Virus record (IMG/VR): IMGVR_UViG_3300028591_000148
Location: 29,239 to 93,238 of that record
Source of the DNA: a virus
Lineage: Duplodnaviria > Caudoviricetes
DNA: 64,000 nucleotides
Strand: one strand, 5' to 3'
Part shown: in pieces, positions 2,515-46,365 of the stretch
Position numbering within the stretch: the stretch's first letter is position 1
Layout of the letters: each line of letters begins with the position of its first letter
The notes under the pieces: model-generated
What the model saw: the letters and a program-made list of their open reading frames with translations, nothing else
Database searches by the model: none
What the model was told of the DNA's origin: nothing
Translations under genes and position numbers: made by a program

Positions 2515-3279
2515 TCAGAATAATTTTCTTTTCTGTGTATTTACAACTTCTTCTATTCTTTCTTTTGCAATTCCAAAATAGTTAGTGTCTAATTCAATAC
2601 CTATAAAATTTCTATTGTTTTTTATACTAGCAATACCTGTGGTTCCAGAACCCATACAATTATCCAAGACAACATCATTTTCATCGGTATATGTTTTCAC
2701 AAGGTATTCTAATAAAGAAAGTGGTTTTTGTGTAGGGTGTAGTTTACCTTTTCTATTTGGAACAACATCAAATTCAAGCACATCGGAAGGATTAACAAAT
2801 TCTGGATCGTATTTTTTCTTATGTTTTTCTAATTCTACATGATTACTGTTACCACAATAATGATCGTAGTTGTAACAACTTTTTCCAATACCGACCCTAG
2901 GTTTTTTCTGTGGGTTGTATACTGGGTTTCCTTTTTGAAATACTAATATCTCTTCATAATATTTCATTGGTCTGTATTTCGCGCTAGTCATTCCTGTCGG
3001 AACATTTTTCTTCCAAATAAGTTTATATTTATAATCCTTCGGATTACTTTGATATGTTTTATATGTAAATAGTCCACTGGAGAATAAAATTATTCTAGAA
3101 TCTTGTTTTAAGATCCTATTGTATAGATTCCAAAGTTCTTCAAAAGGTATAATACTGTCCCAAGAACAACGTGTGGTTCCATAAGGTAGATCACAAATAA
3201 TGCAATCAATCACGTTATCAGGTATTTCTTTCATTATCTCTAAACAATCACCGTTGAACAATTTATAATCTTCTCTCAT
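2515..3279 (-). CDS. DNA N6-adenine/N4-cytosine methyltransferase (beta class)
   Basis: DLPY motif IV, HPTQKP, DNCMGSGTTG motif I. Confidence 0.9.
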   Translation of the reverse strand: MREDYKLFNGDCLEIMKEIPDNVIDCIICDLPYGTTRCSWDSIIPFEELWNLYNRILKQDSRIILFSSGLFTYKTYQSNPKDYKYKLIWKKNVPTGMTSAKYRPMKYYEEILVFQKGNPVYNPQKKPRVGIGKSCYNYDHYCGNSNHVELEKHKKKYDPEFVNPSDVLEFDVVPNRKGKLHPTQKPLSLLEYLVKTYTDENDVVLDNCMGSGTTGIASIKNNRNFIGIELDTNYFGIAKERIEEVVNTQKRKLF

Positions 3280-3516
3280 AATAACCTCCTCAACTCATTA
3301 AAGAGTTGTATTTTTTATTGTGTTGCTTATATAAATTGATAACACCTGAATTTGAATAAAATCAAGATCAATTTTTATTTCTACTTTTTATATAAAAATT
3401 GTTCTTCATGTTCTTACAATATTTTTTATTTTTGGTTTAGAAAATAACTATATATAGTAACTGTTATAAATTTATATTACTACATATTGTTTTAGGTGAC
3501 TATATTCTTCGTTTAT

Positions 3517-3546
3517 AGTATAACACAAAACCTCTACAAAAGTCAA
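3517..3546 (-). promoter_or_regulatory. Sigma-A-type promoter TTGACT-N18-TATACT, overlapped by a 16-bp inverted repeat (3529-3572)
   Basis: Minus strand TTGACTTTTGTAGAGGTTTTGTGTTATACT. Confidence 0.7.
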
Positions 3547-3609
3547 TAGGAAATCAGGACTTTTGTAGAGGTTCACATATATTATAATTTATTAACTTTT
3601 TCTGAGGGT

Positions 3610-3804
3610 TTACTTATAGTGAATAATCATTTTACCTTCCAAAAGACTGATAGTAGTTACGGTTCTATCCTTCTCCTCGTAGAAATAATCAGCATAATCA
3701 AACGATTCCGCTTTACGAATAGTACCTGTAACACCTTCCTGGAGAAATACAGGAATTTTAGAAGTTCCGTAATTAATCTTTTTCATGATATCCTTTACTT
3801 TCAT
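3610..3804 (-). CDS. Hypothetical protein
   Basis: 64 aa ORF with AAGGAGG RBS, directly after promoter 3846-3874. Confidence 0.7.
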   Translation of the reverse strand: MKVKDIMKKINYGTSKIPVFLQEGVTGTIRKAESFDYADYFYEEKDRTVTTISLLEGKMIIHYK

Positions 3805-3845
3805 ATTCGTAACCTCCTTTTATTATTGTGTTTTTTACTATATAT

Positions 3846-3874
3846 AGTATAACATATTTATAATGAAAAGTCAA
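3846..3874 (-). promoter_or_regulatory. Sigma-A-type promoter TTGACT-N17-TATACT
   Basis: Consensus match with TG extension. Confidence 0.75.
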
Positions 3875-3897
3875 GTGCTTTTGAAAAATTCATAATG

Positions 3898-3928
3898 AAA
3901 AACTCCACGAACTTATCGTGGAGTTTTT
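3898..3928. terminator. Intrinsic terminator
   Basis: aaaaactccacga-acttа-tcgtggagttttt hairpin with A/T tails, downstream of the MTase at 3960. Confidence 0.75.
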
Positions 3929-3959: not shown

Positions 3960-4718
3960 TTAGAACAACTTTCTTTTTTCTTGTTTTCGAGTCGATTCAA
4001 TTCTATCCTTTGCAAGTCTAAAATACTCTTCATCGAGTTCAATACCAATAAAATGTCTATTCGTTTTCAAACAAGCTACTCCAGTACTGCCACTACCCAT
4101 AGTTATATCCAAAACCGTGTCATTCTCACTTGTATATGTTTTTATTAAATATTCTAGTAATTCTACAGGTTTTTGAGTTGGATGTATATGTGATGTTGGA
4201 GCATCCCTTTTAAATTCCAGAATTTCACAAGGATATCTTGTACCATCATCAACATAAGGTGTTACCTTAAGATTGTTACCGGATACGGATGTGGAAGAAC
4301 AACCTTTTGGACTATTTTTAACAGGTTTTCCATCGTATGGAACTTTTATAGGAGTATAGTTACATTGCTCTCCATAAAATACACAGATATTTTCAATATA
4401 TTTTCCAGGTCTTCTTTTCACTTGAAATATATTAGTAGGTCGTTCTTTTTTCCAGTACCAATCATATTTGTAGTTAGTAATATTACTTAATCTGAGTTTA
4501 CTGGCAAAGGGTTCCTGGGCAAAGACAACTATAGGACAATTTTTTAGACATACATCGTTCAGGTTAGTCCATAATTTTTCGAAATTCAAGGATTTATCCC
4601 ATTCTAATGGTGTTTGTCCATAGGGTGGATCAAATAAAACAAGATCTATTTTAGTACCTTTTAATCTAGGTAGAATGTTAAAGCAATCGTCATTGTATAG
4701 GGTTATTGTAGTTTCCAA
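3960..4718 (-). CDS. DNA N6-adenine/N4-cytosine methyltransferase (beta class), paralog of 2515..3279
   Basis: DPPY, HPTQKP, DITMGSGSTG motifs. Confidence 0.9.
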   Translation of the reverse strand: METTITLYNDDCFNILPRLKGTKIDLVLFDPPYGQTPLEWDKSLNFEKLWTNLNDVCLKNCPIVVFAQEPFASKLRLSNITNYKYDWYWKKERPTNIFQVKRRPGKYIENICVFYGEQCNYTPIKVPYDGKPVKNSPKGCSSTSVSGNNLKVTPYVDDGTRYPCEILEFKRDAPTSHIHPTQKPVELLEYLIKTYTSENDTVLDITMGSGSTGVACLKTNRHFIGIELDEEYFRLAKDRIESTRKQEKRKLF

Positions 4719-4786: not shown

Positions 4787-6988
4787 TTACTTGTTTTGAT
4801 TCTCATAGAACAGTTTTCTGTAATAAATAATATCTTTAGGCATATGTTCTCTTTCTTCTTTACTGTGTTCGCTATATAATTTCTTCATAAAATCGTAAAA
4901 CAAATTAGATTCAGGTGTTAGTAGTTGTCCGGTTTTATCGATATAACCTTTTCGTAATGTAATCATTGCTATTTTTCTCATATGTTTCCAATGATTGTAA
5001 TAATCGAGTTTAAGTTTTGTCATATAACCGACACTGTCCTCAATAACAAAACCTTCAATGACTCTACCACCAAAAGTATAATCAGGCTGTAAAACCTCAT
5101 TATACCAATCATAGAAATCAGACCAATTATTAATCACAAATGCTTTTGTTTTAACAGTTAATTCTAACTCTTTACCTACTTCTACTACTTCTTCGTAGTC
5201 GTGTTGTTTGAATTCAAGATCGTTATTGATAATGGAAAGTAGAAACAGCTCATTTTCTGGATATTCAATGATGTGTGGATCGTGTACTTGGTCTACACAT
5301 TCAAATACAAGAGTAACATTGTTTTCCTTACAATACTCTTTTACCCACTGTACCTTATCCTCTGACAATTTTTGGTAAAACATTATCTTTAACCATTCTG
5401 CATAGGAACCTACTGGACAGGACTTTGTGGTGATAAACAGATCATCTGTTTCTTCATTATATGAAACAAGACCCAGATATCCATTTTCCTTCACATAGCA
5501 GATAACTGGAAATTTAAGTTTGTATTGTAACATATCAAATTGAGTTTCCGGTCTTTCATTGATATTGAAAAACTTACTGTATCCACGACACATAACTTTC
5601 ATAGTATTTGTGTTAATGTATAATCCTCTTGCTACGATTGTTTGTTCATTCCAAATTTTATCATAAAAAGCATCTTTTGTAAAGTTAAAAGAGGAAATGT
5701 TACCATATTGTTTTTCCTGAATGTGTCTGTTCTTACGAAGTTTCATAACAGCATCTGCCATATCAGAATTGGTAATTGTTTTCTTTTCCTCGACCTCTTC
5801 AATAGGCTTGAATACTGTATTCTGAATAGTTACTTCATGGAACCCTTCTTTATCCAGTTCAACAATACGAAGACATCCACCGTGTTCTATCTTACCTTCG
5901 AGATTAAATGTTCTTTCCTCGATGCACATATCAGAGTATCTAATATTTCTGTGACCGTGAATTTGATACATATTAGATTCTGTATTTTCTTTCCAATATT
6001 TAGCAACGTCTTCATAATCTTTGTAATCACCTACACCACGAATCATTTGTTCAGTGGATATAAATGTCAGATTATCAGGCATTGTGGAAAGACCACCATG
6101 AGTTACTAGAACATCTTTCCCATCATATGTATACCAAGCACATTGACCGCATTTTCTGTAAAGTTGTCTAATGTCTTTCAAATCAATACCAGAATTTTGA
6201 AGTTGTTTTTTCGTTACAAATTCAAATTCTTTAGAATCAGCAATACCTTCATTGGCGTATATCCACAACCATCTTTCATGGTTACCCTCGAGAAGTAGTA
6301 CATTAGGTCGTTTTACAGCTTCGATAAAGAACTTTACAACTTCGGCATTCTCTAGTCCTCTATCAATAATGTCACCTACGAAGATATACATATAGTTATC
6401 GTTAAAACCATTTTTGAAGTATTCCATTAGGGCAGTATAACAACCATGAATATCTCCAATGTGTACGATCTTCTCATATTTATTCAAGTCGAACTTCTTC
6501 ATCCAAATAGTATCAAGTTCTTCCGGTTTAATAGCTTTAATACCTGCTGGAATTTTTTGAGTAGCGAATCTAGAATAAATATTCTCAAGTGCTGATTCTG
6601 GTACCCACTTGAACATAGGACGAAGTTTATTCCTTCTTTTACATTCTTCCAGTGGAACATCTGTCATATCAATACAATAGATTCTGTAACGATATGTTTC
6701 ACACATATCTTTATAACGGTTCATTTCTATTGTTTTACTATTTGTAGCATCAATGACAGTAAACTCACCGCGTTTCATTCTAGTTTCAAGGAGTTTGAAT
6801 AGCATAGACCATACATCTTTTTCATTTTTCTGACTAATTCCGTATGTTCCATTTACATTGAGTTGTGGTGTAGAACAAAGAACACGAATATCATCAGCAC
6901 AAAGAGTATACGGTTTAAGTCCATGTTCCTCAATAAATGTTGACTTACCACATCCAGGTGCTCCACGAAGTAAAAGTAGAACTCTCAT
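4787..6988 (-). CDS. Trifunctional RNA repair enzyme: polynucleotide kinase + metallophosphoesterase + RNA ligase
   Basis: GAPGCGKST P-loop with DATN; GDIHG/GDIIDRG/GNHE/HGH calcineurin-like motifs; KFFN, KENG, EGFV and K-x-K ligase motifs. Confidence 0.88.
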   Translation of the reverse strand: MRVLLLLRGAPGCGKSTFIEEHGLKPYTLCADDIRVLCSTPQLNVNGTYGISQKNEKDVWSMLFKLLETRMKRGEFTVIDATNSKTIEMNRYKDMCETYRYRIYCIDMTDVPLEECKRRNKLRPMFKWVPESALENIYSRFATQKIPAGIKAIKPEELDTIWMKKFDLNKYEKIVHIGDIHGCYTALMEYFKNGFNDNYMYIFVGDIIDRGLENAEVVKFFIEAVKRPNVLLLEGNHERWLWIYANEGIADSKEFEFVTKKQLQNSGIDLKDIRQLYRKCGQCAWYTYDGKDVLVTHGGLSTMPDNLTFISTEQMIRGVGDYKDYEDVAKYWKENTESNMYQIHGHRNIRYSDMCIEERTFNLEGKIEHGGCLRIVELDKEGFHEVTIQNTVFKPIEEVEEKKTITNSDMADAVMKLRKNRHIQEKQYGNISSFNFTKDAFYDKIWNEQTIVARGLYINTNTMKVMCRGYSKFFNINERPETQFDMLQYKLKFPVICYVKENGYLGLVSYNEETDDLFITTKSCPVGSYAEWLKIMFYQKLSEDKVQWVKEYCKENNVTLVFECVDQVHDPHIIEYPENELFLLSIINNDLEFKQHDYEEVVEVGKELELTVKTKAFVINNWSDFYDWYNEVLQPDYTFGGRVIEGFVIEDSVGYMTKLKLDYYNHWKHMRKIAMITLRKGYIDKTGQLLTPESNLFYDFMKKLYSEHSKEEREHMPKDIIYYRKLFYENQNK

Positions 6989-15933: not shown

Positions 15934-18093
15934 TTACTCTATGTTAATCGTTTTTCTATTGTTACATACTTCTTCTAATACTATTGGATCTACTAACTGT
16001 TTTAGTTTTTTACGAATAAATCGTACACCGTCTTTTTTACTATAGCATTTTTCAAACAGCTCCTTTTTCTTACTGTCTGAAAATGTTATAGTTACTTCAC
16101 TATCCAAATAGCGATTAATATACATTCGAATTTCTTTTTCGAATATTCTATAAGCATCTTCTTCTCCGATAATATTAAAATAGATTACATCATCTAATCT
16201 GTTTAAAAATTCAGGCGAAAAGAAATTCTTTATTTCCTTTTGTATAGCATCTGAATTAGAATTGTTTTCGAAACCAATACTGTTTTTATTTAGCATTTCT
16301 TTACATCCAATATTGGATGTCATAATAATTAAGGTATTTCTGAAATCAACGGTTTCGCCTGTTGAATCTGTTAGTCTACCGTCATCCATAACCTGAAGTA
16401 GAATATTTATAACATCCTTATGAGCTTTTTCTATTTCATCTAATAGAATGACAGAGAAAGGATTATTTTTGACTTTATCTGTAATACATCCTCCTTGTGA
16501 ATATCCTACATATCCAGGAGGAGATCCTATTAGTTTTGAAACAGAGTGAGGTTCCATAAATTCTGACATATCGTATCTTAAAAAACTTTCAGGAGTAAAG
16601 AATTGATAAGCTATTTGTCTACATAATTCTGTTTTACCTGTTCCTGTAGGTCCTACAAATAATAGATTAGCAATGGGTTTTGTTGTATCCTGAATTCCCA
16701 TAATATATTTTTTAATAGGAATAAGGGCTGAACTAATTGCCTTATCTTGTCCTATTATATTTTCTTTTATATGTTTTTCTATATTTGGAAATTCTTTTAC
16801 ACTACTTTTATTTAAGTCTACTCCAATATAGCTGTTTATACCCTTGTCAATTTCTTCCTTTGTGAGTTCGGTACTGTGTTCTTTTCTACAAATAACACAA
16901 GAAGTATCTAGTACATCAAATGCTTTATCGGGGAAATACTTATTTCTTATAAAGGTATCACAACTTTCTACTAAATAAGTACATAGTTCGGGTTGTATTT
17001 TTATATTATGGAACTTCTCATAATCAGTTCTCTTATACTCTAACATACTGATAGTATCTTTTACAGATAGTTCATTCACATGAACTCTTGTAAATCTTCT
17101 TTCAAATGCCTTATCAGATTCTATTTGTTTATACTCTGCTTCTGTTGTGCACCCTATTATCTTGGAACCTTTAGATAAGTATGTTTTAAAACTTTCTGCA
17201 ATAGACGAGCTACCAGAATTACCTGCCTTGTTGAACATATTATGTATCTCGTCTATGAACACGATAACCTTATCGTATTCTTGTAAGGAAGCAATAACTG
17301 TTTCTATTCTAGCTTCGAGATCTCCTCTATAAGTAGTTCCACTTATCATAGAATTTATATTCAGTTCATATACATAATAGCCCTTTAACATATCTGGACA
17401 GTCTGTAGATTGTATTAGATTACAAAAACCATATACAACACTTGTTTTTCCTACACCTGGATTACCTACAAGAATAACATTGTTTTTTCTCATCCTACAT
17501 AAAACATCTACACATTGTTGTATCTCTTTTTCTCGTCCAAAGCAGTCATAATGCTCTCTTACAACAAGAGGGTCAGTTAGATACTCGCCGAACTCTAATA
17601 AATCTCCAGACATATTAGTATTTACACATTGATCAAGTATATTACAAAGCTCTGTCTGAACTTTTTCTTTCTCTTTTTGTTTTACATAGATTAGTTCGTC
17701 AAATAATTTTGAACTTTTTAATCTGGAGTCATATATCATTATATAAGATATATAGGCAGTTATTATATTTTGATCTAGTTTATTTCCGTATTGAGATTTG
17801 AAGAATATGTAATTCTTTATGAGAACTTCACACTCTTCAGATAATTCAAGTTCACTAAATTCGTGTAACTTCTTTTCTTTTTCTTTAGGTACTTTTAACT
17901 TATTCTCTACTATTCTATCAGCACATTCTTTAAGGTTCTCTATAACACATTTTTTAAGTAGACCTTGTTGAATGAATAGACACGCTAATAGTTCAGTATC
18001 GATATTTCCATATTTATGTGGAACTAGCATTTTTAATGTGAGTTGGGAGTGTTTAGGTAGTAACTCAAAAAATTCCAAATACTGTGTTTCCAT
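15934..18093 (-). CDS. ClpA/ClpC-like two-ring AAA+ chaperone
   Basis: GNPGVGKT/FIDEIH and GPTGTGKT/LLDEIEKAH; SKLIGSPPGYVGY; start moved to METQY because promoter 18131-18159 overlaps the ORF extension. Confidence 0.9.
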   Translation of the reverse strand: METQYLEFFELLPKHSQLTLKMLVPHKYGNIDTELLACLFIQQGLLKKCVIENLKECADRIVENKLKVPKEKEKKLHEFSELELSEECEVLIKNYIFFKSQYGNKLDQNIITAYISYIMIYDSRLKSSKLFDELIYVKQKEKEKVQTELCNILDQCVNTNMSGDLLEFGEYLTDPLVVREHYDCFGREKEIQQCVDVLCRMRKNNVILVGNPGVGKTSVVYGFCNLIQSTDCPDMLKGYYVYELNINSMISGTTYRGDLEARIETVIASLQEYDKVIVFIDEIHNMFNKAGNSGSSSIAESFKTYLSKGSKIIGCTTEAEYKQIESDKAFERRFTRVHVNELSVKDTISMLEYKRTDYEKFHNIKIQPELCTYLVESCDTFIRNKYFPDKAFDVLDTSCVICRKEHSTELTKEEIDKGINSYIGVDLNKSSVKEFPNIEKHIKENIIGQDKAISSALIPIKKYIMGIQDTTKPIANLLFVGPTGTGKTELCRQIAYQFFTPESFLRYDMSEFMEPHSVSKLIGSPPGYVGYSQGGCITDKVKNNPFSVILLDEIEKAHKDVINILLQVMDDGRLTDSTGETVDFRNTLIIMTSNIGCKEMLNKNSIGFENNSNSDAIQKEIKNFFSPEFLNRLDDVIYFNIIGEEDAYRIFEKEIRMYINRYLDSEVTITFSDSKKKELFEKCYSKKDGVRFIRKKLKQLVDPIVLEEVCNNRKTINIE

Positions 18094-18130
18094 TGTTATC
18101 ACTTCCTTGCATTCTAACTCCTCCAATTTT

Positions 18131-18159
18131 AGTGTAACATAAAAACACATAAAAGTCAA
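18131..18159 (-). promoter_or_regulatory. Sigma-A-type promoter TTGACT-N17-TACACT
   Basis: Near-consensus; same family as the others. Confidence 0.65.
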
Positions 18160-20290: not shown

Positions 20291-20668
20291 TCAAAATAAT
20301 TTCTTTTTATTAGTAATGTATCGAGTTATTACTTTTTGTTCATTACTGGATTTAGGTTTCTTTGTTAATGGGTTTCCACTAACGGTTGTTGTTTCTACAA
20401 TTCTTACATTATGTCCATTCAAATTATCGAACCTACTACTTTGTGTAATAATAGGTTGATTTAATTTCATAACATGAAAATCAAAATCAACATAGCTATC
20501 GGAACTGTTTATACATTCACCCAACTTAAATCCATCCACATAATGCAAATAAAAAGTATTTTCTCTATGTATTAAAACATACCTTAAATGACTATCTACA
20601 ACATATAAACAGGTTAGATCATATCCTTTTGGAATTCTGGAAACAACATCAGCTAATAGGAAGTCCAT
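20291..20668 (-). CDS. Hypothetical protein ending in KKKLF
   Basis: ORF in the operon. Confidence 0.55.
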   Translation of the reverse strand: MDFLLADVVSRIPKGYDLTCLYVVDSHLRYVLIHRENTFYLHYVDGFKLGECINSSDSYVDFDFHVMKLNQPIITQSSRFDNLNGHNVRIVETTTVSGNPLTKKPKSSNEQKVITRYITNKKKLF

Positions 20669-25437: not shown

Positions 25438-26376
25438 TCACATGACGTTTACAATAAGATAATCCACAACATCTTCCGATGTAACAATACCTTGTTTTAC
25501 AGCTTTTTCGTAATATTTTAAATATTTCATGAATGTAACAAGTTCTTCTATTTTATATTTATTTACATACTCCATAGCTGTTTTGACTTGATAACCTGTT
25601 AAACCTGTTGATTCTGTTACGTTTTTAGTACCTGCTAGTGTTATTTGAAGTACAGCCTTTACATTGTTATGAAGTAAAGAAACAATCATTAAAGGATTAT
25701 CACCACGTTTTTTAGAATTTTCCATAAAAGAGTAGACGTGTTTATAATCTCTTTTCATAATACAATCTACTAATTCATACACTTCACCACTTATTTCAGA
25801 ATAAAAAACTCCATTCTGTTTACATATTCTAAAAGCATCGTTATCTGAAAGTCTTCTAGCTTTCTTTAGATTCTTAACTTTATCAACTTCTAAAAGTATT
25901 CTACCATAACTTTTACCACATAATTCGGCAAGGTACAAACAATCCTCTTCGGATATATCTAAATCTTTACGAATGTATTTACACAACATACTTTCAGACA
26001 AATATGTGAACTCTACAATATTATCTACAAACTTCTTACTAAATTTAGAACGTGAATCTATATTTCCGTATTTCATGATTACTGTGATATTTTTTGATTT
26101 GAGTTGTTTCTCAAGCCCTTCCCAGCTCTTTTCATCCGTTAAGAATGATTTATCATCACGAATAACATATATAGATTTACTACTCGCAAATAAAGACTTG
26201 GTATTCAGTGTTTTGATAATGTTTTGTATAGACTCAGATTTATAGGTTATTCCACCTATTTTCTCACATAATTTATTGATGTATATATTCAGTATTTGAA
26301 ATTCTTCCCCATAAAAGATATACAGATTTCTAAATGATCCTTCAGACATGGATTTTTTTAGTTCCATCAAGGTCAT
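25438..26376 (-). CDS. holA: DNA polymerase III delta-like clamp-loader subunit
   Basis: NLYIFYGEE, SLFAS, IDSRSKFSK; adjacent to holB/dnaX. Confidence 0.75.
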   Translation of the reverse strand: MTLMELKKSMSEGSFRNLYIFYGEEFQILNIYINKLCEKIGGITYKSESIQNIIKTLNTKSLFASSKSIYVIRDDKSFLTDEKSWEGLEKQLKSKNITVIMKYGNIDSRSKFSKKFVDNIVEFTYLSESMLCKYIRKDLDISEEDCLYLAELCGKSYGRILLEVDKVKNLKKARRLSDNDAFRICKQNGVFYSEISGEVYELVDCIMKRDYKHVYSFMENSKKRGDNPLMIVSLLHNNVKAVLQITLAGTKNVTESTGLTGYQVKTAMEYVNKYKIEELVTFMKYLKYYEKAVKQGIVTSEDVVDYLIVNVM

Positions 26377-30926: not shown

Positions 30927-30936
30927 ATAAATATAA

Positions 30937-31011: not shown

Positions 31012-31013
31012 GG

Positions 31014-31101: not shown

Positions 31102-31109
31102 ATAACGAA

Positions 31110-31191: not shown

Positions 31192-31201
31192 AGTATAAGA
31201 A

Positions 31202-31276
31202 TCGGAATGACAGGATTTGAACCTGCGACATCCTGCTCCCAAAGCAGGTGATCTAGCCAAACTGATCTACATTCCG
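31202..31276 (-). tRNA. tRNA-Pro(TGG)
   Basis: Loop TT-TGG-GA. Confidence 0.92.
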
Positions 31277-31278
31277 AA

Positions 31279-31500
31279 ATGTCACTAAACATTTCTATTC
31301 AGTGACATCTAGACTACTTTTCTTATGTAGTCTACAGAACCCTTATTCAGCTTAAGAATATCCTATTAGGGTGTGTCCATCAACTAGTTGAACAAATCAA
31401 CTTTTTTAGTTTACTCTACTTTATGGACAAACAATCTTGGTTTTCGATTGCTACATCTAATCCTGATATTCTAGGATTTTGATGTATTTCAAGTAAACTA
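31279..31500 (-). ncRNA. Candidate multi-hairpin RNA
   Basis: Six or more adjacent inverted repeats plus a 9-bp long-range pairing 31407-31415/31492-31500; strand inferred from the operon. Confidence 0.45.
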
Positions 31501-31503
31501 TAA

Positions 31504-31587
31504 TGCTGCTGACCGGACTTGAACCGGTACGGTGTATCCACCGAGAGATTTTAAGTCTCTTGCGTCTGCCGATTTCGCCACAGCAGC
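31504..31587 (-). tRNA. tRNA-Leu(TAA)
   Basis: Loop CT-TAA-AA, variable arm. Confidence 0.92.
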
Positions 31588-31595
31588 AAATATTA

Positions 31596-31667
31596 AGACA
31601 AGGGTGAGATTCGAACTCACGATCGTGGTGTTGCAGACCACTGTCTTAACCTCTTGACTACCTTGTC
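31596..31667 (-). tRNA. tRNA-Cys(GCA)
   Basis: Loop CT-GCA-AC. Confidence 0.9.
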
Positions 31668-31668
31668 G

Positions 31669-31740
31669 TTATGTGAATCTGTTTTGTATGTACGCCGATA
31701 ATCGTTCTTTCAAAATTATTCGTGTAACAGATTCACATAA
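31669..31740. repeat. Perfect 15-bp inverted repeat filling a tRNA spacer
   Basis: ttatgtgaatctgtt (31669-31683) / aacagattcacataa (31726-31740). Confidence 0.8.
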
Positions 31741-31742
31741 AA

Positions 31743-31815
31743 TGGGATTGGACAGGATTCGAACCTGCGATCTGGGCTTTGTGTGCCCTTGCCTTACCCA
31801 CTTGGCTACAATCCC
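31743..31815 (-). tRNA. tRNA-like gene with non-canonical anticodon loop ACACAAA (nominal anticodon ACA)
   Basis: Intact acceptor (GGGATTG/CAATCCC), D and T arms; lacks U33. Confidence 0.75.
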
Positions 31816-31818
31816 TAG

Positions 31819-32029
31819 TGGAACACCAGTACCTCTCCCTTTCGACCGATGTATTAACGAACTCCACCTAAATCCGTCCTGTAAGACCTAGTACAGGAAA
31901 TATCATTTAAATATAACAGGCGTCCCTGCTTCCTATTTAACCCATAAGTGGAGTAAGGTTTTACTGCTTACCTTCAAACATCGTCATCTAGGTCCGGATC
32001 CTAAATGATTCCAGGTAACTAGGATTACC
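31819..32029 (-). ncRNA. Candidate ~210-nt multi-branched RNA
   Basis: TGGAA/TTCCA, TCATTTAGG/CCTAGATGA, CGATGT/ACATCG, ACTCCACTTA/TAGGTGGAGT, TCCTGTA/TACAGGA; G-U pairs form only on the minus strand. Confidence 0.55.
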
Positions 32030-32034
32030 CTTGA

Positions 32035-32107
32035 AGCTGGATGACGGACTCGAACCCCCGACCTGCTGATTACAAATCAGCTGCTCTACCAACTGAGCTA
32101 ATCCAGC
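32035..32107 (-). tRNA. tRNA-Thr(TGT)
   Basis: Loop TT-TGT-AA. Confidence 0.92.
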
Positions 32108-32110
32108 AAA

Positions 32111-32297
32111 GTGTCTGTCTATCCAGACTGTCATAAGGCACTGCCACTTATGTTACCGTCTACCGTAAGCCTTATTCCCCTCTCGACGACCATTAACGGA
32201 GTGGTCCATTCCGGATGTCTTGTTAAGGTACAAACTCTTAAACCTTACTTTCTCAAGGTTATTTTATAGAACCGTTTGATATAAGTAATAAACCTTT
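32111..32297 (-). ncRNA. Candidate structured RNA with a pseudoknot related to the one at 30842-30876
   Basis: CGGA-ATGGACCAC-TCCG-TTAA-TGGTC; ATAAGGC/GCCTTAT; terminal GTCTG-GATAGA-CAGAC. Confidence 0.5.
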
Positions 32298-32306
32298 CAG
32301 TTCTTT

Positions 32307-32382
32307 TGGCTCCCGTAGACAGACTCGAACTGCCGACTTGATCATTAACAGTGACCCGTTCTACCAACTGAACTATACGGGA
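32307..32382 (-). tRNA. tRNA-Asn(GTT), CCA encoded
   Basis: Loop CT-GTT-AA. Confidence 0.9.
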
Positions 32383-32386
32383 ATGA

Positions 32387-32463
32387 TAGGAACCCGGGGA
32401 CTCGAACCCCGACAAAGACATGGCTTATAAGGCCACCGCTCTCACCGGTTGAGCTAGGCTCCC
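32387..32463 (-). tRNA. tRNA-Ile(TAT)
   Basis: GTGGC-CT-TAT-AA-GCCAT anticodon arm. Confidence 0.88.
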
Positions 32464-32485
32464 ATATAATATGTGTTATATTTAT

Positions 32486-32514
32486 ATAATAACACATATT
32501 GCATTAAAAGTCAA
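32486..32514 (-). promoter_or_regulatory. Promoter of the tRNA array, TTGACT-N17-TATTAT
   Basis: Same family as the others; -10 lies inside the inverted repeat aatatgtgttat/ataacacatatt. Confidence 0.65.
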
Positions 32515-32527
32515 GTAGTTTATAAAA

Positions 32528-32901
32528 GATTATGATTACAAAGCAGCCACGAGGAAACCTATACGGTCATGAGATTAACCCGTAAACCTTTTACCGTGGA
32601 TTTTGTAAAACCTTATACTTTTCTCTTTACGTTTTAACCTTTATATGTAACTAATATTTGATGTTTAAGGTTTTAACTTTGAGCTATAATCTTTAAACTT
32701 TCTAGCTGAATGAAGTGGATTCGAACCACGACTGGATTGGTAGTCCAGTGCTTTCCAAATTATATAACTCTCAACCAAAGAAAGTTTGAAAGTTCTTTAA
32801 AATCTCAATTATTGGCGAGATCTTCAAGAATATATAGCTCTCTATTAACGCTTAGAGAATAACGAATCTCAATTTATAGTTTTCGCTTTGCAATCACAAC
32901 C
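32528..32901 (-). ncRNA. Candidate ~375-nt ncRNA with 17-bp closing helix, heptamer array and embedded tRNA-like element
   Basis: GGTTGTGATTGCAAAGC pairs with GCTTTGTAATCATAATC (14 WC + 3 G-U); 12 AAAGnTT-like heptamers. Confidence 0.7.
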
Positions 32902-32911
32902 CCAAACTCAA

Positions 32912-33562
32912 TTAACACTCAAACTCAATTATAGTTACCGCGTTAGATGTAGAAAGTGCTGCATCAACTTTCGTATTATAGAAATCAAGTTCGTTTTTGA
33001 GTTCTTCAATCTTTTCTTTAAGATTGTTAGGATCAAGCAAGTCCGTTGTGTTAGCGGCAATATAAGCATCCCTGCTTGTCTTAACAATGGTACCATCAAT
33101 ACCTTCCTTATTACCAAACAGACTTGTGACATATCTGTCAGCAAGGTCTTCAATGGCACTATTGTTATTATTCACTCTGTTAATAGCAGTTTTAAATTGA
33201 TTAGCGAGTGTTTTTACTAACTTCTCAACAAATGTAAGACCGACATTCTTGTACTCAATAAGTTCGGCAACTGTCATAGTAATGGTAGTTCCGTTTTCTT
33301 TAGTAAGTGTAACAGGTGTTACAGCATTACTCTTTGTGATAGCCTTCTTAATGGCATTTCTGCGTTTAATAAGGTCTTCAACCTTTTGCAATGCGGACTT
33401 CATGGACTGGTTATATTCCTCAATACTTTTACCCTCAATCTTTGTGTTTGCGTGTTTGTTACAATTAATAAACACATTGGAGTCCAATTCCTTTTCAATT
33501 CTTTCCGCCAGAACTTTAAGTTCAGCCAGACCTTCGTGAACGGTCATTGAATACTTTGTCAT
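32912..33562 (-). CDS. Coiled-coil protein with two-fold internal repeat (possibly DIP1984/DUF6847-like)
   Basis: MTVHEGLAELK..SNAVTPV and MTVAELIEYK..SNAVTII halves; GGAGG RBS; family resemblance is from memory. Confidence 0.7.
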   Translation of the reverse strand: MTKYSMTVHEGLAELKVLAERIEKELDSNVFINCNKHANTKIEGKSIEEYNQSMKSALQKVEDLIKRRNAIKKAITKSNAVTPVTLTKENGTTITMTVAELIEYKNVGLTFVEKLVKTLANQFKTAINRVNNNNSAIEDLADRYVTSLFGNKEGIDGTIVKTSRDAYIAANTTDLLDPNNLKEKIEELKNELDFYNTKVDAALSTSNAVTIIEFEC

Positions 33563-33606
33563 AATAGTCTTCCTCCATGAAATTTAAGATTTTATATTAA
33601 TTGATA

Positions 33607-33679
33607 TGGGCATTAGCGGATTCGAACCGCTGACTTTCTCCTTAAAAGGGAGTTACTCTACCAACTGAGTTAAATGCCC
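33607..33679 (-). tRNA. tRNA-Lys(TTT)
   Basis: Loop CT-TTT-AA. Confidence 0.9.
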
Positions 33680-38977: not shown

Positions 38978-39497
38978 CGTACTCACTCCATATCTTATCA
39001 GATTCTTGGTGAAGTTTGTGTAAGAACCTATCACCGAAATAGTCAAACATAACACGTTTCTTCATACCATCAATTAAGATATGTGGAATAAAATCTTCAT
39101 TAGACGAATCTGTAACTAGGTTTGTAATGTTTAGTGATTTAGCACCACTATTACGATGTCTCTGTAGATCTTTAATATTCACAAATGCTGTAACATCGTG
39201 GTCCATAAACCAAACACACACACCGGCTACACAACGGTATATTTGACTTTTTTCGTACATACCAATCCATTGATTCTTTGTAATATCCCCGGCATAGTTC
39301 AGTGTATTACCATATTTACTTTTACACTCCAAATAAAACATATCCGGAGAACTAAACATTGTAAAATCACAAATATTACGAACACCTGAATAACCTGCCA
39401 TAGGGTCTATAAGTCTATCAAATGATACATTAGGTAGATTTTCTAGACTTTTCTTTATAGCACCCTCAAAGTCTTTACCTCTATTTACTGCTTTCAT
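38958..39497 (-). CDS. recU: RecU-like Holliday junction resolvase
   Basis: NRGKDFE, CDF..FYLECKS, ITKNQ. Confidence 0.8.
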   Translation of the reverse strand: MKAVNRGKDFEGAIKKSLENLPNVSFDRLIDPMAGYSGVRNICDFTMFSSPDMFYLECKSKYGNTLNYAGDITKNQWIGMYEKSQIYRCVAGVCVWFMDHDVTAFVNIKDLQRHRNSGAKSLNITNLVTDSSNEDFIPHILIDGMKKRVMFDYFGDRFLHKLHQESDKIWSEYDGKINK

Positions 39498-40483
39498 TTA
39501 TTATCAACCTTACATACAGTTTTATAATCGCAATACTGACATATGTGCTTTGTTATATCCGTTTCTATAGGAGGAGGTGTTTTTTTATCTACATAACTCT
39601 GACAAATAGCAATTCTGTTATCAATATATTGTCTGTTTTCATCCGTCACTTCTACTAGAAATGATTTTTTAGTACAGAAATCTCTATTTTCATAAATAAA
39701 AATAACTTTATCGATTCCAAATTCTAGTGAGTATGTGTACGCTTGTATCCTATGTTCTGGATCCATTGCTTTTCTGTCCATCCATTTATAGGATGATTCT
39801 GTTTTGATTTCTATAATATAATATGTATTCTTATACTTTATAATTCCATCACACAAGAATACAATATTTCTTCTTTCGTCGTACAGTTTTACTTCATAGT
39901 CTTTCTTACTTTGAATTGTTAAAGGTAAATTATGTTCTTTAACAAACTCAACGACATCGACAAATTCACAGTCAACACCATATTCCTTCATTTTAGAAAT
40001 AGCGTTTTGAATACGTTCGTGTCTATCCGTTCCACTATCACAAATACCGTAAAAATCAGATGTTTTACTGGATTGTTTATCCTGGTCAGCACCTATTACC
40101 TGATAGTACATATTACGAATACACTTCATCGAAGAAGGTTTATACGTTCTGGAAGGCTTTCCGTCCGAATACATACACACATAATAATCATCATTTGCAT
40201 GATAAACAATATGAGAATTATCATAGCAGTTTTCCTTATTAGGTTCAGGTAATTCTGTTACACAAACAATATCAACTCTTCTATACGTTTCGGAACCTTC
40301 TTGTTTGGTGTCGAGATATTTATCCTTGTTATCGGTTATCTTTTTGAAATAATAACCTACTTTGTACTCATTCATTTTACGAATAGTGTAATCCAGATCC
40401 AAAAGAAAGGATGCTTCCGGAGAAACATCCTTCCCAGAATCTGCTACTAACCTATTCAGATTAAATAGTGGTTTCTGTGCCAT
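39494..40483 (-). CDS. Cas4-like PD-(D/E)XK exonuclease
   Basis: PSSMKCIR, GTDRHE, CDGII..IIEIKT, Q..Y, CQYCDYKTVC (4-Cys Fe-S pattern). Confidence 0.8.
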   Translation of the reverse strand: MAQKPLFNLNRLVADSGKDVSPEASFLLDLDYTIRKMNEYKVGYYFKKITDNKDKYLDTKQEGSETYRRVDIVCVTELPEPNKENCYDNSHIVYHANDDYYVCMYSDGKPSRTYKPSSMKCIRNMYYQVIGADQDKQSSKTSDFYGICDSGTDRHERIQNAISKMKEYGVDCEFVDVVEFVKEHNLPLTIQSKKDYEVKLYDERRNIVFLCDGIIKYKNTYYIIEIKTESSYKWMDRKAMDPEHRIQAYTYSLEFGIDKVIFIYENRDFCTKKSFLVEVTDENRQYIDNRIAICQSYVDKKTPPPIETDITKHICQYCDYKTVCKVDNK

Positions 40484-40485: not shown

Positions 40486-41574
40486 TTATGACTCCATTCT
40501 TGGGTCGTCCAATAGTGAAATAATCTGAATTACATTATCCTCTTCAATACGGAATGTAGAAGGTTCACCGTAATAAAGATGTACAGTTTCACCAACTCTA
40601 GCATTGAGTTGCTTCTTCAAGGATTCCACACCTACAAAACAGGTGAAGTCTTTGAAGTTGTTACTACCCTGATACGGTACCGTTTCAATACCGTCATCAT
40701 GTGCAGACTCTACCTTAACACCTGCTTGAGTAAATGTCATGTACAATCCATTCTGATCATTATCACTAATAAACAGAGACAATCTATCAATAATATTAAG
40801 AAGAGCTGTTTTTGGAAGTATGCAATCAGAACCGTATTCTCTTTCCAAAATAGCATCGATAGTTGATACCGGATATTCTTCAATACCTTCTGGAAGTACA
40901 GCAAACAGTTTCATCTTCTCGGTCTTAAACAAAATATTATTCTGATAAATTTTATATGTAATGTCTTCTTCAGATGTCATACTTAAAAGTTCGAATACAT
41001 TTGGTGGAATAAGTACGTCCTTATCAAATGTAGGTAACTGTGTAATGCAAATATTAAATGTATCCGCAGAAATAACTCTGTTCTTCAAACACAGATAATT
41101 TACCAGGTACGGTGCCTCCAATGTCAGTGCCAAAGAGGGCTTATTATGAAGAATAAGTGTTTTAATAACAGATGTTTTGATAGTTCCACTGTATTCCGGA
41201 TTATTGATCTCGTGTACTGGATACTTAATAGGTGTACCATCTACATCAAGCTGAATTGGAATCTTATAAGTACCATTACCTGTAACAGAAATAAAACTAT
41301 CTGTAACATCAATCTTGATATTCTCTACACTTGTTTTCATAATCAGTTTAGAGAATGTATCTACATTAACTGTAAATGTTACAGGATCTCCATTAAGAAT
41401 TTTGTCAGTTACAGTAAAATAGTTATTAGAATCTGTTGTTGTAATAGAGAAGTTACCGCTGTCTACAACAAAATTCATCAAACTTGTAATAGCGCTGAAC
41501 TTACTGTTTCCTGCACCTTTAATTGCCTTATTAATAGCTGTTTGAAGTACCTGAGTATTGATAGTAAATGCCAT
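40486..41574 (-). CDS. dnaN: DNA polymerase III beta sliding clamp
   Basis: 362 aa, three-domain beta-clamp pattern (TTTDSN, SADTF, EEYP, LLNIIDRLSL); cognate clamp loader in the window. Confidence 0.75.
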   Translation of the reverse strand: MAFTINTQVLQTAINKAIKGAGNSKFSAITSLMNFVVDSGNFSITTTDSNNYFTVTDKILNGDPVTFTVNVDTFSKLIMKTSVENIKIDVTDSFISVTGNGTYKIPIQLDVDGTPIKYPVHEINNPEYSGTIKTSVIKTLILHNKPSLALTLEAPYLVNYLCLKNRVISADTFNICITQLPTFDKDVLIPPNVFELLSMTSEEDITYKIYQNNILFKTEKMKLFAVLPEGIEEYPVSTIDAILEREYGSDCILPKTALLNIIDRLSLFISDNDQNGLYMTFTQAGVKVESAHDDGIETVPYQGSNNFKDFTCFVGVESLKKQLNARVGETVHLYYGEPSTFRIEEDNVIQIISLLDDPRMES

Positions 41575-43704: not shown

Positions 43705-43782
43705 AATAAAAACCTCCTCTTTTTAATAGTTCACATCAGCATATTGGAGTTATAAAATTTCTCTTATAACACCTACATCTAT

Positions 43783-43812
43783 AATATAACACTTTTTTTA
43801 TTCGTTTGTCAA
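43783..43812 (-). promoter_or_regulatory. Promoter TTGACA-N18-TATATT upstream of queD
   Basis: Same promoter family. Confidence 0.6.
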
Positions 43813-43816
43813 TAGT

Positions 43817-44692
43817 TTAGAACAACTTTATGGCATTATTATTTTTTGTGGTATACCTTGGTTTTAAATTATCTGGTATTGTTATAGGTGTTTTTCTTGG
43901 AACTAAAACAGCATTATCTTTATATTTTTTATTAAGTTTTCCATTTATAAATAGGTCTGTATTCTTATACCTCTCAACAACCAGTTCATTATTTGAAGAA
44001 TGAACTGACATTCGATACTCGTAATCCTTAAAAATTGTCGAACTTTCGGTATAATTGTAAGAAGAAGATATGAAAGTTGCTAATACATGAGTTTTAATAT
44101 TATTCAACTTTAGAATGCAACAAAAATCTTTATCTTCATAACCTTCACCGTTCTCTGCTTTCAGATCATTATAATACAATTCTTTATTATAATATTTTTT
44201 AAAATTTCGAATAAGTGCGATACCTGTATCACCAATAGTTTGAACGTCCTCAAACACATAATTTGTTAAATTTAAAGGGTTTTCATAAACTAACTTCTTA
44301 AAAGGTAACTTATTTGCACTATGAGTTCGTATATAATCTAATTCAATAAACTTTTTTGAGTTGTTTATAATTTCGTTGAAAAATGTAAAAATGTCATAAT
44401 AGTCATAAAAGTATCTATCATCATCACATAATAACATCCAATCGTCTTCACTGTCATAAAACTGTTTAAGAAGTTCATTTCTTGCATTTGCAGGACCAAT
44501 ACCTTTTTCATGTTTAATATAGTGAATAACATCATTTTCTACAAAATCTGAATCTTGGTAACCCTGTGACAATATATAAATAGAGCAATTTAATTTATAC
44601 ATAAGTGTTAATTGTTTATGATGGGCTTTAATTCTATCTTGTCGAACTTTCTCATCATTTGGAAGATAACTAATAATTCCAATTCTCAACAT
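43817..44692 (-). CDS. GT-A fold glycosyltransferase-like protein
   Basis: IGIISY, GPANARNELL, WMLLCDDD (DxD), GYEDKDF; ends IKLF. Confidence 0.7.
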   Translation of the reverse strand: MLRIGIISYLPNDEKVRQDRIKAHHKQLTLMYKLNCSIYILSQGYQDSDFVENDVIHYIKHEKGIGPANARNELLKQFYDSEDDWMLLCDDDRYFYDYYDIFTFFNEIINNSKKFIELDYIRTHSANKLPFKKLVYENPLNLTNYVFEDVQTIGDTGIALIRNFKKYYNKELYYNDLKAENGEGYEDKDFCCILKLNNIKTHVLATFISSSYNYTESSTIFKDYEYRMSVHSSNNELVVERYKNTDLFINGKLNKKYKDNAVLVPRKTPITIPDNLKPRYTTKNNNAIKLF

Positions 44693-44710
44693 ATTAAAAA
44701 CCTCCTCTAT

Positions 44711-45433
44711 TTATTCAAGATAATTTGAATATTTAGATACGATATTTTTAATATCAGTTTCTTCCTGTTCACCCCGACCGTAAGTACCTTTTAGAATATC
44801 CGGCATAATTTCTTTATTAATGTAATTAACTGCTGTTTTAATTTGGCTATCATTAAATTTATAACCATTTAGATCAAATGATACGAACTTTCTAAAGCAT
44901 GGTTTGCACTTCCAACATTCATGCCCATCTATAGGATTATAACAACTAAAAGATTTCGTGAACGCTTCTTTAATGTCTCCACCGTTATCAACAAACATTT
45001 TAATTAGATCTTTCTTTGTCTTATCTTTAAAGTCGATATTAACCCTTACTTTTTTTCCTTTTGGAATCCAATGTTGTGGCTGATATAAAAAATTAAGGAG
45101 ATCATTTGTCTTTTTTACAAACTCATAAGATTTATCTAAAACACGATCTCCCTTTGTTGCACCTAGGCAAATTTCAACATCCTCATCACCTGTAATGTTA
45201 CATGCAACCATAACTAAATATAAATTCCTAAGTGGAATAATCGCATCAGGTCTTTCCCACATTCCAAGAGGAAAATCTACAAGTTCAACATCCCCACCGT
45301 CTGAAACTATTTTTTTAATTTCATTCTCTGAATACCTTGTATGCATATTTACATACAATTTAATATCCGGCTTCCAAATCTTATCAATAAGCCAACTATC
45401 CATCCCGCCGCTGTAAAGCAATACTTTTTTCAT
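44711..45433 (-). CDS. queC: 7-cyano-7-deazaguanine synthase-like PP-loop ATPase
   Basis: SGGMDS, IPLRNL, SCY..CWKCKPCFRK Zn site. Confidence 0.85.
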   Translation of the reverse strand: MKKVLLYSGGMDSWLIDKIWKPDIKLYVNMHTRYSENEIKKIVSDGGDVELVDFPLGMWERPDAIIPLRNLYLVMVACNITGDEDVEICLGATKGDRVLDKSYEFVKKTNDLLNFLYQPQHWIPKGKKVRVNIDFKDKTKKDLIKMFVDNGGDIKEAFTKSFSCYNPIDGHECWKCKPCFRKFVSFDLNGYKFNDSQIKTAVNYINKEIMPDILKGTYGRGEQEETDIKNIVSKYSNYLE

Positions 45434-45444
45434 CTTAAAACTCC

Positions 45445-46365
45445 TTAAAATAATCTATTGGATTTAAGTGATCGTCCATCATAAGAAGTAGACTGACTCT
45501 TCTCATACAGATAATAAATATTCAACAACATTCGATATCTATAACTTTCTTGAGCCTGTTCCAATTTAATACCATGCTTTTCACAATAATTTGAAATAGA
45601 ATCTTTTATCTCTTTTGAGCAATGCGTGATATTATCTTTATCGGAAACAGATTCTTTGCTTACCTTTAAAACTCCCCAATCCGTAAGAATTCCACCATTT
45701 GCACCTGTCATAATCCAAGAAGTTGCATCCATACTTGTGACAGGAAACTTCTTTGCGTTAGATAAAGTAGCACTTCCTAGAAAATGGGTTTTTACATTTG
45801 GATTATTACTTTTCTTTATAATATCGAAGCACTTTAGATAAAAGTCTTCTCTTTGTTTATTGGTAATCTCTTTATTTCCAGAAATACAAATATATTTTAC
45901 ATATTCACCACTAATTTTATGGTTTATAATTTGTTCTAAATACTTGTAATTCTCACCTTGGTGAAATACAGGGAGTAATTTTTGAGGACTTTTGCATCTT
46001 TCAATCATATATAGATAATTTTTCCAGGTGTTTATTGGAGATTCTTTTACCTGTTCATATGTCTTTACTTCTCCCCATTTTCCAGGGATATAATCAAGAG
46101 CAATCGCATAATCAATATATTCGTCATTCTCATTTAACCAATCAATATATTTGTCAATATCAAGCTCTCCACCCTGTCTATGAACAGTGAAAGCACCATT
46201 ATCAATAAGGAGCTTTCCTTTCCAACCTTGCTTTTTATATTCAAACCAATTTAGAATAGAACTCATGTCATTCACAAATGATTTAAGAACATTTGCATTT
46301 AGATCTCGTATAAGATCAGTTGTTTCTTGACATTGTGATCCAGCAAAATAAAAATCGAAACTCAA
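45445..46365 (-). CDS. dpdA: DpdA-like deazaguanine DNA transglycosylase (TGT fold)
   Basis: IDNGAFT, ALDYIPG, PVFHQGE, HFLG, SMDATSW; context of que genes and DNA polymerase; ends NRLF. Confidence 0.8.
   Translation of the reverse strand: MSFDFYFAGSQCQETTDLIRDLNANVLKSFVNDMSSILNWFEYKKQGWKGKLLIDNGAFTVHRQGGELDIDKYIDWLNENDEYIDYAIALDYIPGKWGEVKTYEQVKESPINTWKNYLYMIERCKSPQKLLPVFHQGENYKYLEQIINHKISGEYVKYICISGNKEITNKQREDFYLKCFDIIKKSNNPNVKTHFLGSATLSNAKKFPVTSMDATSWIMTGANGGILTDWGVLKVSKESVSDKDNITHCSKEIKDSISNYCEKHGIKLEQAQESYRYRMLLNIYYLYEKSQSTSYDGRSLKSNRLF

Follow-up and report, generated by a model that had tools for sequence, protein, structure and literature searches.

A basic Leu-Phe C-terminal tail shared by predicted DNA-modifying enzymes of a clamp-encoding phage, a probable sliding-clamp docking motif

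The window analyzed in this study was the right-hand 64 kb (64,000 nucleotides, positions 29,239 to 93,238) of the 93,238-bp single-contig virus record IMGVR_UViG_3300028591_000148 (Caudoviricetes). Five of its predicted proteins, namely two N6/N4 DNA methyltransferases, a DpdA-type DNA guanine transglycosylase, a GT-A fold glycosyltransferase and an orphan protein of 125 residues, ended in the same short tail, in which Lys or Arg was followed by Leu-Phe and the stop codon. This motif occurred far beyond chance, lay in disordered termini, was conserved across orthologs, was confined to DNA-acting families and co-occurred with a phage gene for the beta-type sliding clamp. The partner of the tail is probably the sliding clamp, and the tail would then be this lineage's own version of the bacterial clamp-binding motif. 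That motif is carried by Pol II, Pol IV, UmuC, delta, Hda and MutS, among others, and its consensus is reportedly QL[SD]LF or QLxLxL, as described by Dalrymple et al. in 2001 and in later work. A sequence-only reading of the window had proposed that the modification enzymes are loaded on the phage's own clamp, so that nascent phage DNA is selectively modified at the fork.

The genes for the tailed proteins, the clamp and clamp loader, PolA, the Cas4-like and DUF6011 proteins, the Clp-type ATPase, NrdD, the Pnkp fusion and the tRNAs lay on the minus strand, which carried almost all genes of the window (G+C, 32%), and coordinates are window positions unless stated otherwise. Methyltransferase 1 (254 residues, 2515..3279; PF01555, E 2.2e-30; phrog_67) ended in QKRKLF (2518-2535), and methyltransferase 2 (252 residues, 3960..4718; PF01555, E 4.2e-28) in EKRKLF (3963-3980). 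The tails of the orphan (20291..20668), the glycosyltransferase (291 residues, 43817..44692, within the 7-deazaguanine cluster) and DpdA (306 residues, 45445..46365; phrog_887, E 5e-43) were NKKKLF (20294-20311), NAIKLF (43820-43837) and KSNRLF (45448-45465), respectively, and all five were present as the sequence-only reading had given them. The open reading frames (ORFs) were greedy longest-ORF calls (at least 50 residues, at most 60 nt of overlap), not gene-finder output. A count over the whole 93,238-bp genome, which that reading had suggested, showed that, of 137 minus-strand ORFs with 50 or more residues, 5 had a [KR]LF C-terminus, against 0.092 expected from the internal tripeptide frequency of 18/26,829 (binomial P 4.7e-8). 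These five were also the only ORFs of the genome that ended in LF (0.51 expected, P 1.7e-4). The two methyltransferases were paralogs, 42% identical over residues 7-252 and aligned through the last residue, and therefore their two tails are not independent.

The codons of the tail differed among the five ORFs (AAA, AAG or AGA; TTA or TTG; TTC or TTT), as did the stops (TGA or TAA). The likeness thus sits at the protein level, as had been claimed, and a DNA-level motif behind the tails was rejected. That chance or composition produced the tails, through a DNA-level signal or through AT-rich codons (AAA TTA TTT TAA) piling up before stops, is hardly conceivable. The low G+C content and the AT-rich codons of K, L and F would favor it, but the excess over expectation and the synonymous differences in codons and stops argue against it; moreover, homologs as little as 25% identical, and genomes that differ in composition, still had the tail at the protein level.

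Structure models indicated that the tail is a flexible short linear motif outside the folded domains. The DpdA activity was predicted from a fold like that of tRNA-guanine transglycosylase, the phrog_887 match and the adjacent genes for QueC, PTPS/QueD, QueE and GTP cyclohydrolase I. In the DpdA model (predicted local distance difference test, pLDDT, 94.5), the fold closed with helix 275-292, and residues 293-306 were coil, with a pLDDT of 58 for the last block. The glycosyltransferase had a weak Pfam GT2 match (E 0.006), and its AlphaFold model (pLDDT 87) showed a GT-A fold, with AvpGT, TarP, TarS and SpsA as Foldseek matches (E 8e-8 to 2e-6). Its last ten residues, 282-291, had a pLDDT below 50.

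Among the best 120 DpdA homologs (46-100% identity, unselected), 106 ended in LF; position -2 was L in 115 of them all, and position -1 was F in 106. The linker ahead of the tail varied in sequence and length, and K or R occupied positions -3 to -6 in 50-65% of the homologs against a background of 13%. Alignment A2 was built from 100 of the 120 matches, with near-duplicates, one shortened protein and the ends other than LF (P0045, P0059, P0064, P0081, P0082, P0092, P0094, P0097, P0100, P0103, P0107, P0110, P0113 and P0118) excluded; the invariance of L305 and F306 in it is thus a product of selection, and the 106/120 count uses all matches. In addition, DpdA homologs of 522-540 residues in loci L103, L106, L109, L111, L114 and L115 carried a C-terminal extension of about 220 residues and ended in ...KAGF, ...KGGF or ...GFNS in place of the basic residues and LF.

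The basic enrichment could also mean that the tail binds DNA itself, as a non-specific electrostatic anchor or a one-dimensional "sled" that raises DNA affinity, for which the adenovirus pVIc peptide is the model. The presence of the tail only on DNA-acting families agrees with this explanation as well. However, the constant part of the motif was Leu-Phe-COOH and not the charge, and the neighbors of the Leu-Phe pair were acidic or neutral in some glycosyltransferase homologs (ending SDTLF, NNTLF or KGTLF) and in proteobacterial DpdAs (QMELF, QELF). Hydrophobic pairs placed strictly at a terminus typically serve in pocket binding, and a DNA sled is accordingly regarded as improbable.

The tail was also found in homologs of the other enzymes. 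Among 18 close glycosyltransferase homologs, 10 ended in LF, five in KKSLFDLI and one in TIFDIIGGA. Most of the best 120 methylase homologs stopped a few residues past "...AKERIE"; 15 had an added extension of 8-12 residues ending in LF, three ended in LW, and two read KQLNLFD, which is the canonical QLxLF form. For the methylases, 54 of 56 loci were read (L075 and L079 were dropped as partial matches; L032 and L059 were broken frames), and the clamp searches covered 30 of the 56. The orphan had no Pfam or PHROG family and no usable Atlas match. Its one relative found lay at 82076-82462 of G001, a related 201,895-bp IMG/VR record whose DnaN was 64% identical to that of the window; it was 38% identical by blastp (40% by genome protein search) and ended in NKNKTKLF. 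Relatives were found by protein search, since a megablast search of the phage collection with 7 kb of window sequence gave no match.

Some side observations concern the same enzymes. The glycosyltransferase gene (43817-44692), with an invariant DDD, sat between queC and queD/queE, and its best PDB match was the nucleoside glycosyltransferase AvpGT; glycosylated 7-deazaguanine in the phage DNA is therefore a possible outcome of this GT-A enzyme. In the related locus L123, dpdA was flanked by two tailed glycosyltransferase paralogs. The methyltransferase 1 homolog of the closest relative, G001 (100144-100524; L004/L010), comprised only the N-terminal 126 residues, with 74% identity over residues 1-122, and was split or truncated.

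The distribution of the tail among families was examined in 80 IMG/VR loci around DpdA homologs (33-69% identity), with up to 10 kb per side and 1865 ORFs called. LF ended 105 of these ORFs, against 7.3 expected; 61 were DpdAs and 44 were other proteins. Clustering of the locus proteins yielded 94 families that had three or more distinct sequences, and in six of them LF ended at least half of the members: a class-I S-adenosylmethionine-dependent methylase encoded directly after dpdA (7/7), a DUF5591 family of ArcS2 type (3/3), a 175-residue family of no named function (3/3), a DUF6884 family (6/7), DpdA itself (54/71) and a CxxCxxCC protein family (5/9). DUF5591 is the ArcS2 core according to the available portion of PMC10516641. 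Single tailed members included glycosyltransferase paralogs, an N6_N4 methylase, a phosphoadenosine-phosphosulfate-reductase-like protein and a protein with a ligase N-terminal domain. For 84 of the 94 families, no member ended in LF, including QueE (0/35), GTP cyclohydrolase (0/29), PolA (0/68), DnaN (0/50) and RecA (0/45). As far as family assignments tell, the tail is restricted to families acting, or proposed to act, on DNA, and the small-molecule, free-base steps are tail-less. This split between DNA steps and free-base steps inside one pathway is the strongest internal control of the analysis.

The primase (49760-50782) and DnaB (51075-52418) families showed acidic aromatic ends in relatives from loci L086-L165, with ENLQELF, QEVF and KIIF on primases and TEVF or SEVF on DnaB. 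The DnaB of the window ended in GGAQTPF and that of G001 in GGSQTPF. The primase and DnaB ends are a second, distinct class of terminal motif.

The proposed docking partner was the beta-type sliding clamp DnaN (362 residues, 40486..41574), which matched phrog_947 (E 1.7e-25) and PF00712 (E 6.9e-5; 23.4 bits, slightly under the cut-off of 24.4) and had 809 relatives in the representative library. The window also encoded the clamp-loader subunits delta (HolA; 25438-26376; PF21694 in the C-terminal domain, E 1e-12), delta' (HolB; 26376-27248) and DnaX (27233-28258), the latter two with matches to PF13177, PF12169 and PF22608. The sequence-only reading had listed all four of these proteins, and the family matches bore it out. 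Residues 60-63 in the N-terminal domain of delta read KSLF (26188..26199), and when five delta subunits were aligned with MAFFT, the window stretch TKSLFAS fell opposite AMSLFAS of Escherichia coli delta, which we take to be the beta-clamp-binding element of that subunit. The corresponding residues were KDMF in G001, KGLF in Flasso and KGLV in Dp-1. The KSLF/MSLF match rests on this five-sequence alignment, as phmmer of delta against PDB sequences aligned the C-terminal domain only. Furthermore, only 3 of 278 plus-strand ORFs of G001 ended in LF, and these were DpdA (KKSLF), the orphan homolog and a NAD-dependent DNA ligase of 688 residues, which bore a KKSGKLF end beyond its BRCT domain. DNA ligase is a classic clamp client.

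A further candidate clamp hook lay at the N-terminus of PolA. The sequence-only reading had listed PolA MAGFFNL, Cas4-like MAQKPLFNL and QSIQLFD as similar pairs near other termini; as C-terminal cases they did not stand, since the first two are N-termini and the third covers residues 46-52 of the 68-residue ORF 25219-25425. MAGFFNL (48727..48747) began the family-A DNA polymerase (46399-48747; PF00476, E 1e-89). PolA N-termini in loci L086-L165 were conserved as M-(A/S)-G-[LF]-[FL]-N-[LV]; those of relatives read MSGLFNL, MALFNL or MAGLLKSL, and in two loci QKSLFGNL and QKGLFANL, and this N-terminus is likely to be a clamp hook on the family-A replicative polymerase. MAQKPLFNL (40457..40483) began the Cas4/RecB-like nuclease (39494-40483; PF01930, E 1.8e-4); the G001 ortholog began with MPKMKSLFNV, and the Flasso and Dp-1 orthologs had no LF there. 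The ORF at 25219-25425, directly after the clamp-loader genes, encoded a DUF6011 protein (E 5e-9) with LQSIQLFD at residues 45-52, which may be a small clamp-binding protein.

A tag for an AAA+ unfoldase or protease, either the phage ClpB/C-like ATPase or host ClpXP, was considered as another function, by which the lifetime of the modification enzymes would be limited. The MuA-type basic C-terminal tag is a model for Clp recognition, and a basic cluster with two terminal hydrophobic residues resembles it. The window encoded a ClpB/ClpC-like double AAA+ ATPase (15934..18159; PF07724, E 9e-63; PF00004; PF10431), which was 52% identical to a counterpart in G001, and the orphan gene lay about 2 kb from it. 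However, PF07724 was found in none of five complete phages with a tailed DpdA and not in Flasso, and all six have a clamp. In addition, a degron leaves the restriction to DNA-acting families, the ligase tail and the delta match unexplained. The phage-Clp form of this alternative, which had been named as the main one that would overturn clamp docking, is thus disfavored, a verdict that does not extend to host ClpXP; a degron of either form appears quite improbable, slightly more so than a DNA sled.

The gene for the clamp was a frequent neighbor of dpdA. In 54 of 78 loci, no more than 10 kb separated DnaN from DpdA; among the 59 loci that had 6.5 kb or more of downstream sequence, this held for 51. 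Clamp calls were made with the phrog_947 profile, which replaced a window-type DnaN profile, A1, built from the window DnaN and 102 of 150 listed representatives (those excluded were six bearing long extensions and the final 42). The A1 profile proved too narrow, with clamp matches in 1 of 30 methylase records and in 2 of 6 isolated phages, and depositor-annotated clamps were missed. With hhalign, Rhizobium and Pseudomonas clamps matched A1 at probabilities of 2.6% and 1.5%, respectively, whereas phrog_947 matched the same two at E 4e-49 and 2e-76.

Among the 16 isolated phages with a phrog_947 clamp, DpdA ended in LF in 11, had LF in the last four residues in two, ended in LW or FF in two and had none of these in one. 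The tail was thus of LF type in 13 of the 16, as expected if it is kept in homologs from clamp-encoding phages. The two clamp phages 9g and BcepGomr had LF near the DpdA end, in RLQDLFDE and QQGLFV, respectively. The clamp was often the next gene to dpdA, as in 9g, PaMx25 and a Stenotrophomonas phage. The DpdAs of three actinophages without a clamp match ended in ENGQ, GVTA and HGQA. The association of the LF tail with the clamp in isolated phages gave a one-sided Fisher P of 0.02, uncorrected for relatedness. The DpdA tails of proteobacterial phages were EQMELF, RIQELF, RVQELF, IQGLF and the RLQDLFDE of 9g, and those of the Firmicutes-type clade were basic residues followed by LF.

Structure prediction of DnaN with the tails, which the sequence-only reading had suggested, was run for DpdA. 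Modeled together, a DnaN dimer and DpdA residues 262-306 scored 0.52 (runs 0.49, 0.52 and 0.53) against 0.28 for the best of three controls, with the verdict "weak support"; the runs shared at least 31% of contacts, and the pLDDT of the partner was at least 38. Of 80 solved complexes, 58 passed the mark, as did 2 of 110 mismatched pairs; passing scores of 0.60 or less came from only 7 of the 80 solved complexes and from both passing mismatches. Clamp-peptide complexes have already been solved, and therefore the pass may reflect likeness only.

Several results weigh against clamp docking or narrow its reach. The complex prediction was a weak pass and gave no interface. The window tails KRKLF, KKKLF, AIKLF and SNRLF do not fit the consensus Q-L-[SD]-L-F/QLxLxL, of which only the LF core is matched and the Gln anchor is missing, and Q was nearly missing at -4/-5 in the 120 DpdA homologs. 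PolA, which most needs the clamp, lacked LF at its C-terminus, so its N-terminus would have to serve. The claim that all DNA-modifying enzymes of the phage are tailed held for those visible in the window and failed for a third N6_N4 methylase (493 residues, genome 27773-29254, minus strand), which lay almost wholly outside the window, with its last 16 bases inside; its acidic C-terminus, about 170 residues past the methylase domain, ended in ...EEECGDEG. In loci L143 and L145, DnaN stood next to a tail-less DpdA, and Cellulophaga phage phiSM had a clamp and a DpdA ending in TTWNK. The clamp-positive and clamp-negative phages formed related groups, and the Fisher test overstates their independence. 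Among the IMG/VR methylase records, those with LF-, MF- or LL-ending homologs had a clamp match in 1 of 11 cases and those without in 2 of 19 (Fisher P 1.0), and three IMG/VR records rated 100% complete (30-46 kb) had a tailed methylase and no clamp found. Finally, an earlier proposal that T4 alpha-glucosyltransferase rides the gp45 clamp is cited in the available part of a 2025 preprint (bioRxiv 10.64898/2025.12.06.692756), in which the contact was not reproduced with C-terminally His-tagged enzymes.

The tail could instead dock the enzymes on another shared hub, such as the polymerase, the helicase, SSB or one another in a multi-enzyme DNA-modification complex. The comparative data show a motif common to DNA-acting enzymes and do not by themselves identify its partner; the weak pass of the complex prediction and the tailed methylases in phages without their own clamp also leave room for this explanation. 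Against it stand the same KSLF at the clamp-contacting position of delta, the tail on ligase, the adjacency of the DpdA and clamp genes across very distant phages with no tail where there was no clamp, and the closeness of the proteobacterial tails to the canonical clamp motif. Such a hub is unlikely, although it is the least improbable of the alternatives considered.

The KSLF of delta, the ligase tail of G001, the DpdA-clamp gene pairing, the tail-less DpdAs of clamp-less actinophages, the QxELF tails and the weak complex pass together make clamp docking the best-supported reading of the tail, so far as sequence comparison and modeling can indicate. The proposal of loading on the phage clamp at the fork was therefore supported in its docking part, and not in the selective use of the phage's own clamp or in action strictly at the fork. 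Tailed methylase homologs occurred in complete small phages without a clamp, which leaves selectivity for the phage's own clamp over that of the host unsupported; in those phages, a clamp partner would have to be that of the host.

In the proposed mechanism, a peptide of two to four Lys/Arg, an optional small residue and Leu-Phe-COOH would plug its Leu-Phe pair into the hydrophobic cleft, between domains II and III, of the phage beta-type clamp (40486-41574), which phage DnaX, delta and delta' would load. Clamps left on fresh duplex DNA would then recruit DpdA (7-deazaguanine insertion), the two adenine/cytosine-N methylases, the GT-A glycosyltransferase and the 125-residue protein, and post-replicative modification would thereby be concentrated on fresh phage DNA. 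We infer accordingly that the clamp is the partner, that it is the clamp of the phage rather than of the host, and that modification is coupled to replication. Marking of the phage DNA thus probably takes place just behind the fork.

If clamp docking is correct, hypermodification, including 7-deazaguanine insertion, its methylation or amidation, base methylation and glycosylation, would be physically coupled to replication. This would explain the high and fast modification of their own DNA by some phages, the position of dpdA beside the clamp gene in many unrelated phages, and the presence of the tail on DNA-acting steps only and not on free-base biosynthesis. Docking would also supply a cheap sequence rule for spotting new DNA-modifying enzymes in phage genomes. 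The pairing of clamp and dpdA genes ranged from Dp-1-like and Flasso-like phages of Firmicutes to Queuovirinae of Proteobacteria. A more tentative extension, which we consider somewhat doubtful, is that the LF hook is a general address label used by beta-clamp phages on every enzyme acting on freshly replicated DNA, and that the clamp beside dpdA is a landing pad for hypermodification at least as much as a processivity factor. If so, the tail alone would predict new DNA-modifying enzymes, namely the 125-residue orphan, the GT-A glycosyltransferase and the DUF6884, CxxCxxCC and 175-residue families. Moreover, C-terminal tags on such enzymes may mask the clamp contact, which bears on the contested case of T4 alpha-glucosyltransferase and gp45.

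The remaining gene content of the window was as follows. The replication set was complete, with the family-A polymerase, DnaN clamp, DnaX, delta', delta, DnaB helicase, primase, RecA, a UvrD-type helicase and the Cas4-like nuclease. The 7-deazaguanine cluster comprised GTP cyclohydrolase I, QueE, PTPS/QueD, the glycosyltransferase-like gene, QueC and DpdA. Other genes encoded NrdD, a ThyX-like protein, a Pnkp-RNA ligase fusion and the ClpB/C-like double AAA+ ATPase. The anaerobic ribonucleotide reductase NrdD (42-2474) had a glutaredoxin/thioredoxin-like domain at its C-terminus (residues about 738-797). The Pnkp/Rnl1-type kinase-phosphatase-RNA ligase fusion (4787-6988, 733 residues) had RKLF (4808-4819) six residues from its end, and neither G001 nor Flasso yielded a homolog of it. 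Sixteen tRNA genes in an array (29858-33679) covered Phe, Ser, Gly, Arg, Tyr, Glu, Gln, Leu (two), Pro, Cys (two, one with anticodon ACA), Thr, Asn, Ile(TAT) and Lys.

Textbook knowledge already covers clamp-binding motifs and the tool-belt idea, and the tails described here share with bacterial beta-clamp clients a short, disordered, usually terminal peptide with a constant Leu-Phe, a three-domain beta-type clamp with its own loader in the same genome, and likeness to the cognate delta element (xSLF). Canonical forms were present in homologs, namely KQLNLFD in methylases, QKSLF at PolA N-termini and QMELF in proteobacterial DpdAs. Unlike those clients, the window clade has a Lys/Arg run where the canonical motif has the Gln anchor; in addition, the clients here are DpdA, methylases and a glycosyltransferase, not polymerases or repair factors, and the clamp is phage-encoded. 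DNMT1 is coupled to PCNA through a PCNA-interacting-protein box and marks new DNA soon after synthesis. It is alike in being a DNA methyltransferase tethered to a replication clamp, but the clamp family, motif and position are different, and DNMT1 performs maintenance methylation of hemimethylated sites, not anti-restriction hypermodification.

The clients of the T4/RB69 gp45 clamp, with the C-terminal tails of gp43, gp33 and gp55, are similar in combining a phage clamp with C-terminal hydrophobic tails on unrelated proteins. However, the clamp here is DnaN-like (362 residues; phrog_947, PF00712) and not the trimeric, two-domain gp45, and the polymerase here has no C-terminal tail. Clamp-binding motifs at polymerase C-termini of T4-like phages are described in the available part of PMC3201878, for viral polymerases only. 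The phage 7-deazaguanine systems with DpdA, DpdM and ArcS2, as presented in the available portions of PMC6884629 and PMC10516641, contain the same enzymes and the same cluster of FolE, QueD, QueE, QueC and DpdA, and 7-deazaguanine insertion is described there as post-replicative. The main texts of PMC6884629, PMC10516641, PMC10484667 and PMC7544227 never use the word "clamp" and leave the tail and the DpdA-clamp pairing undiscussed, and the main text of PMC4840434 on the Dp-1 interactome makes no mention of DnaN, gp7 or a clamp. Nothing was found in the main texts searched on a clamp with DpdA or a tRNA-ribosyltransferase, on clamp-binding motifs in phage methyltransferases or DNA modification, or on sliding clamps in hypermodification. 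Clamp-binding motifs themselves are already known; what appears to be new is a tail of clamp-binding type on DNA-modification enzymes.

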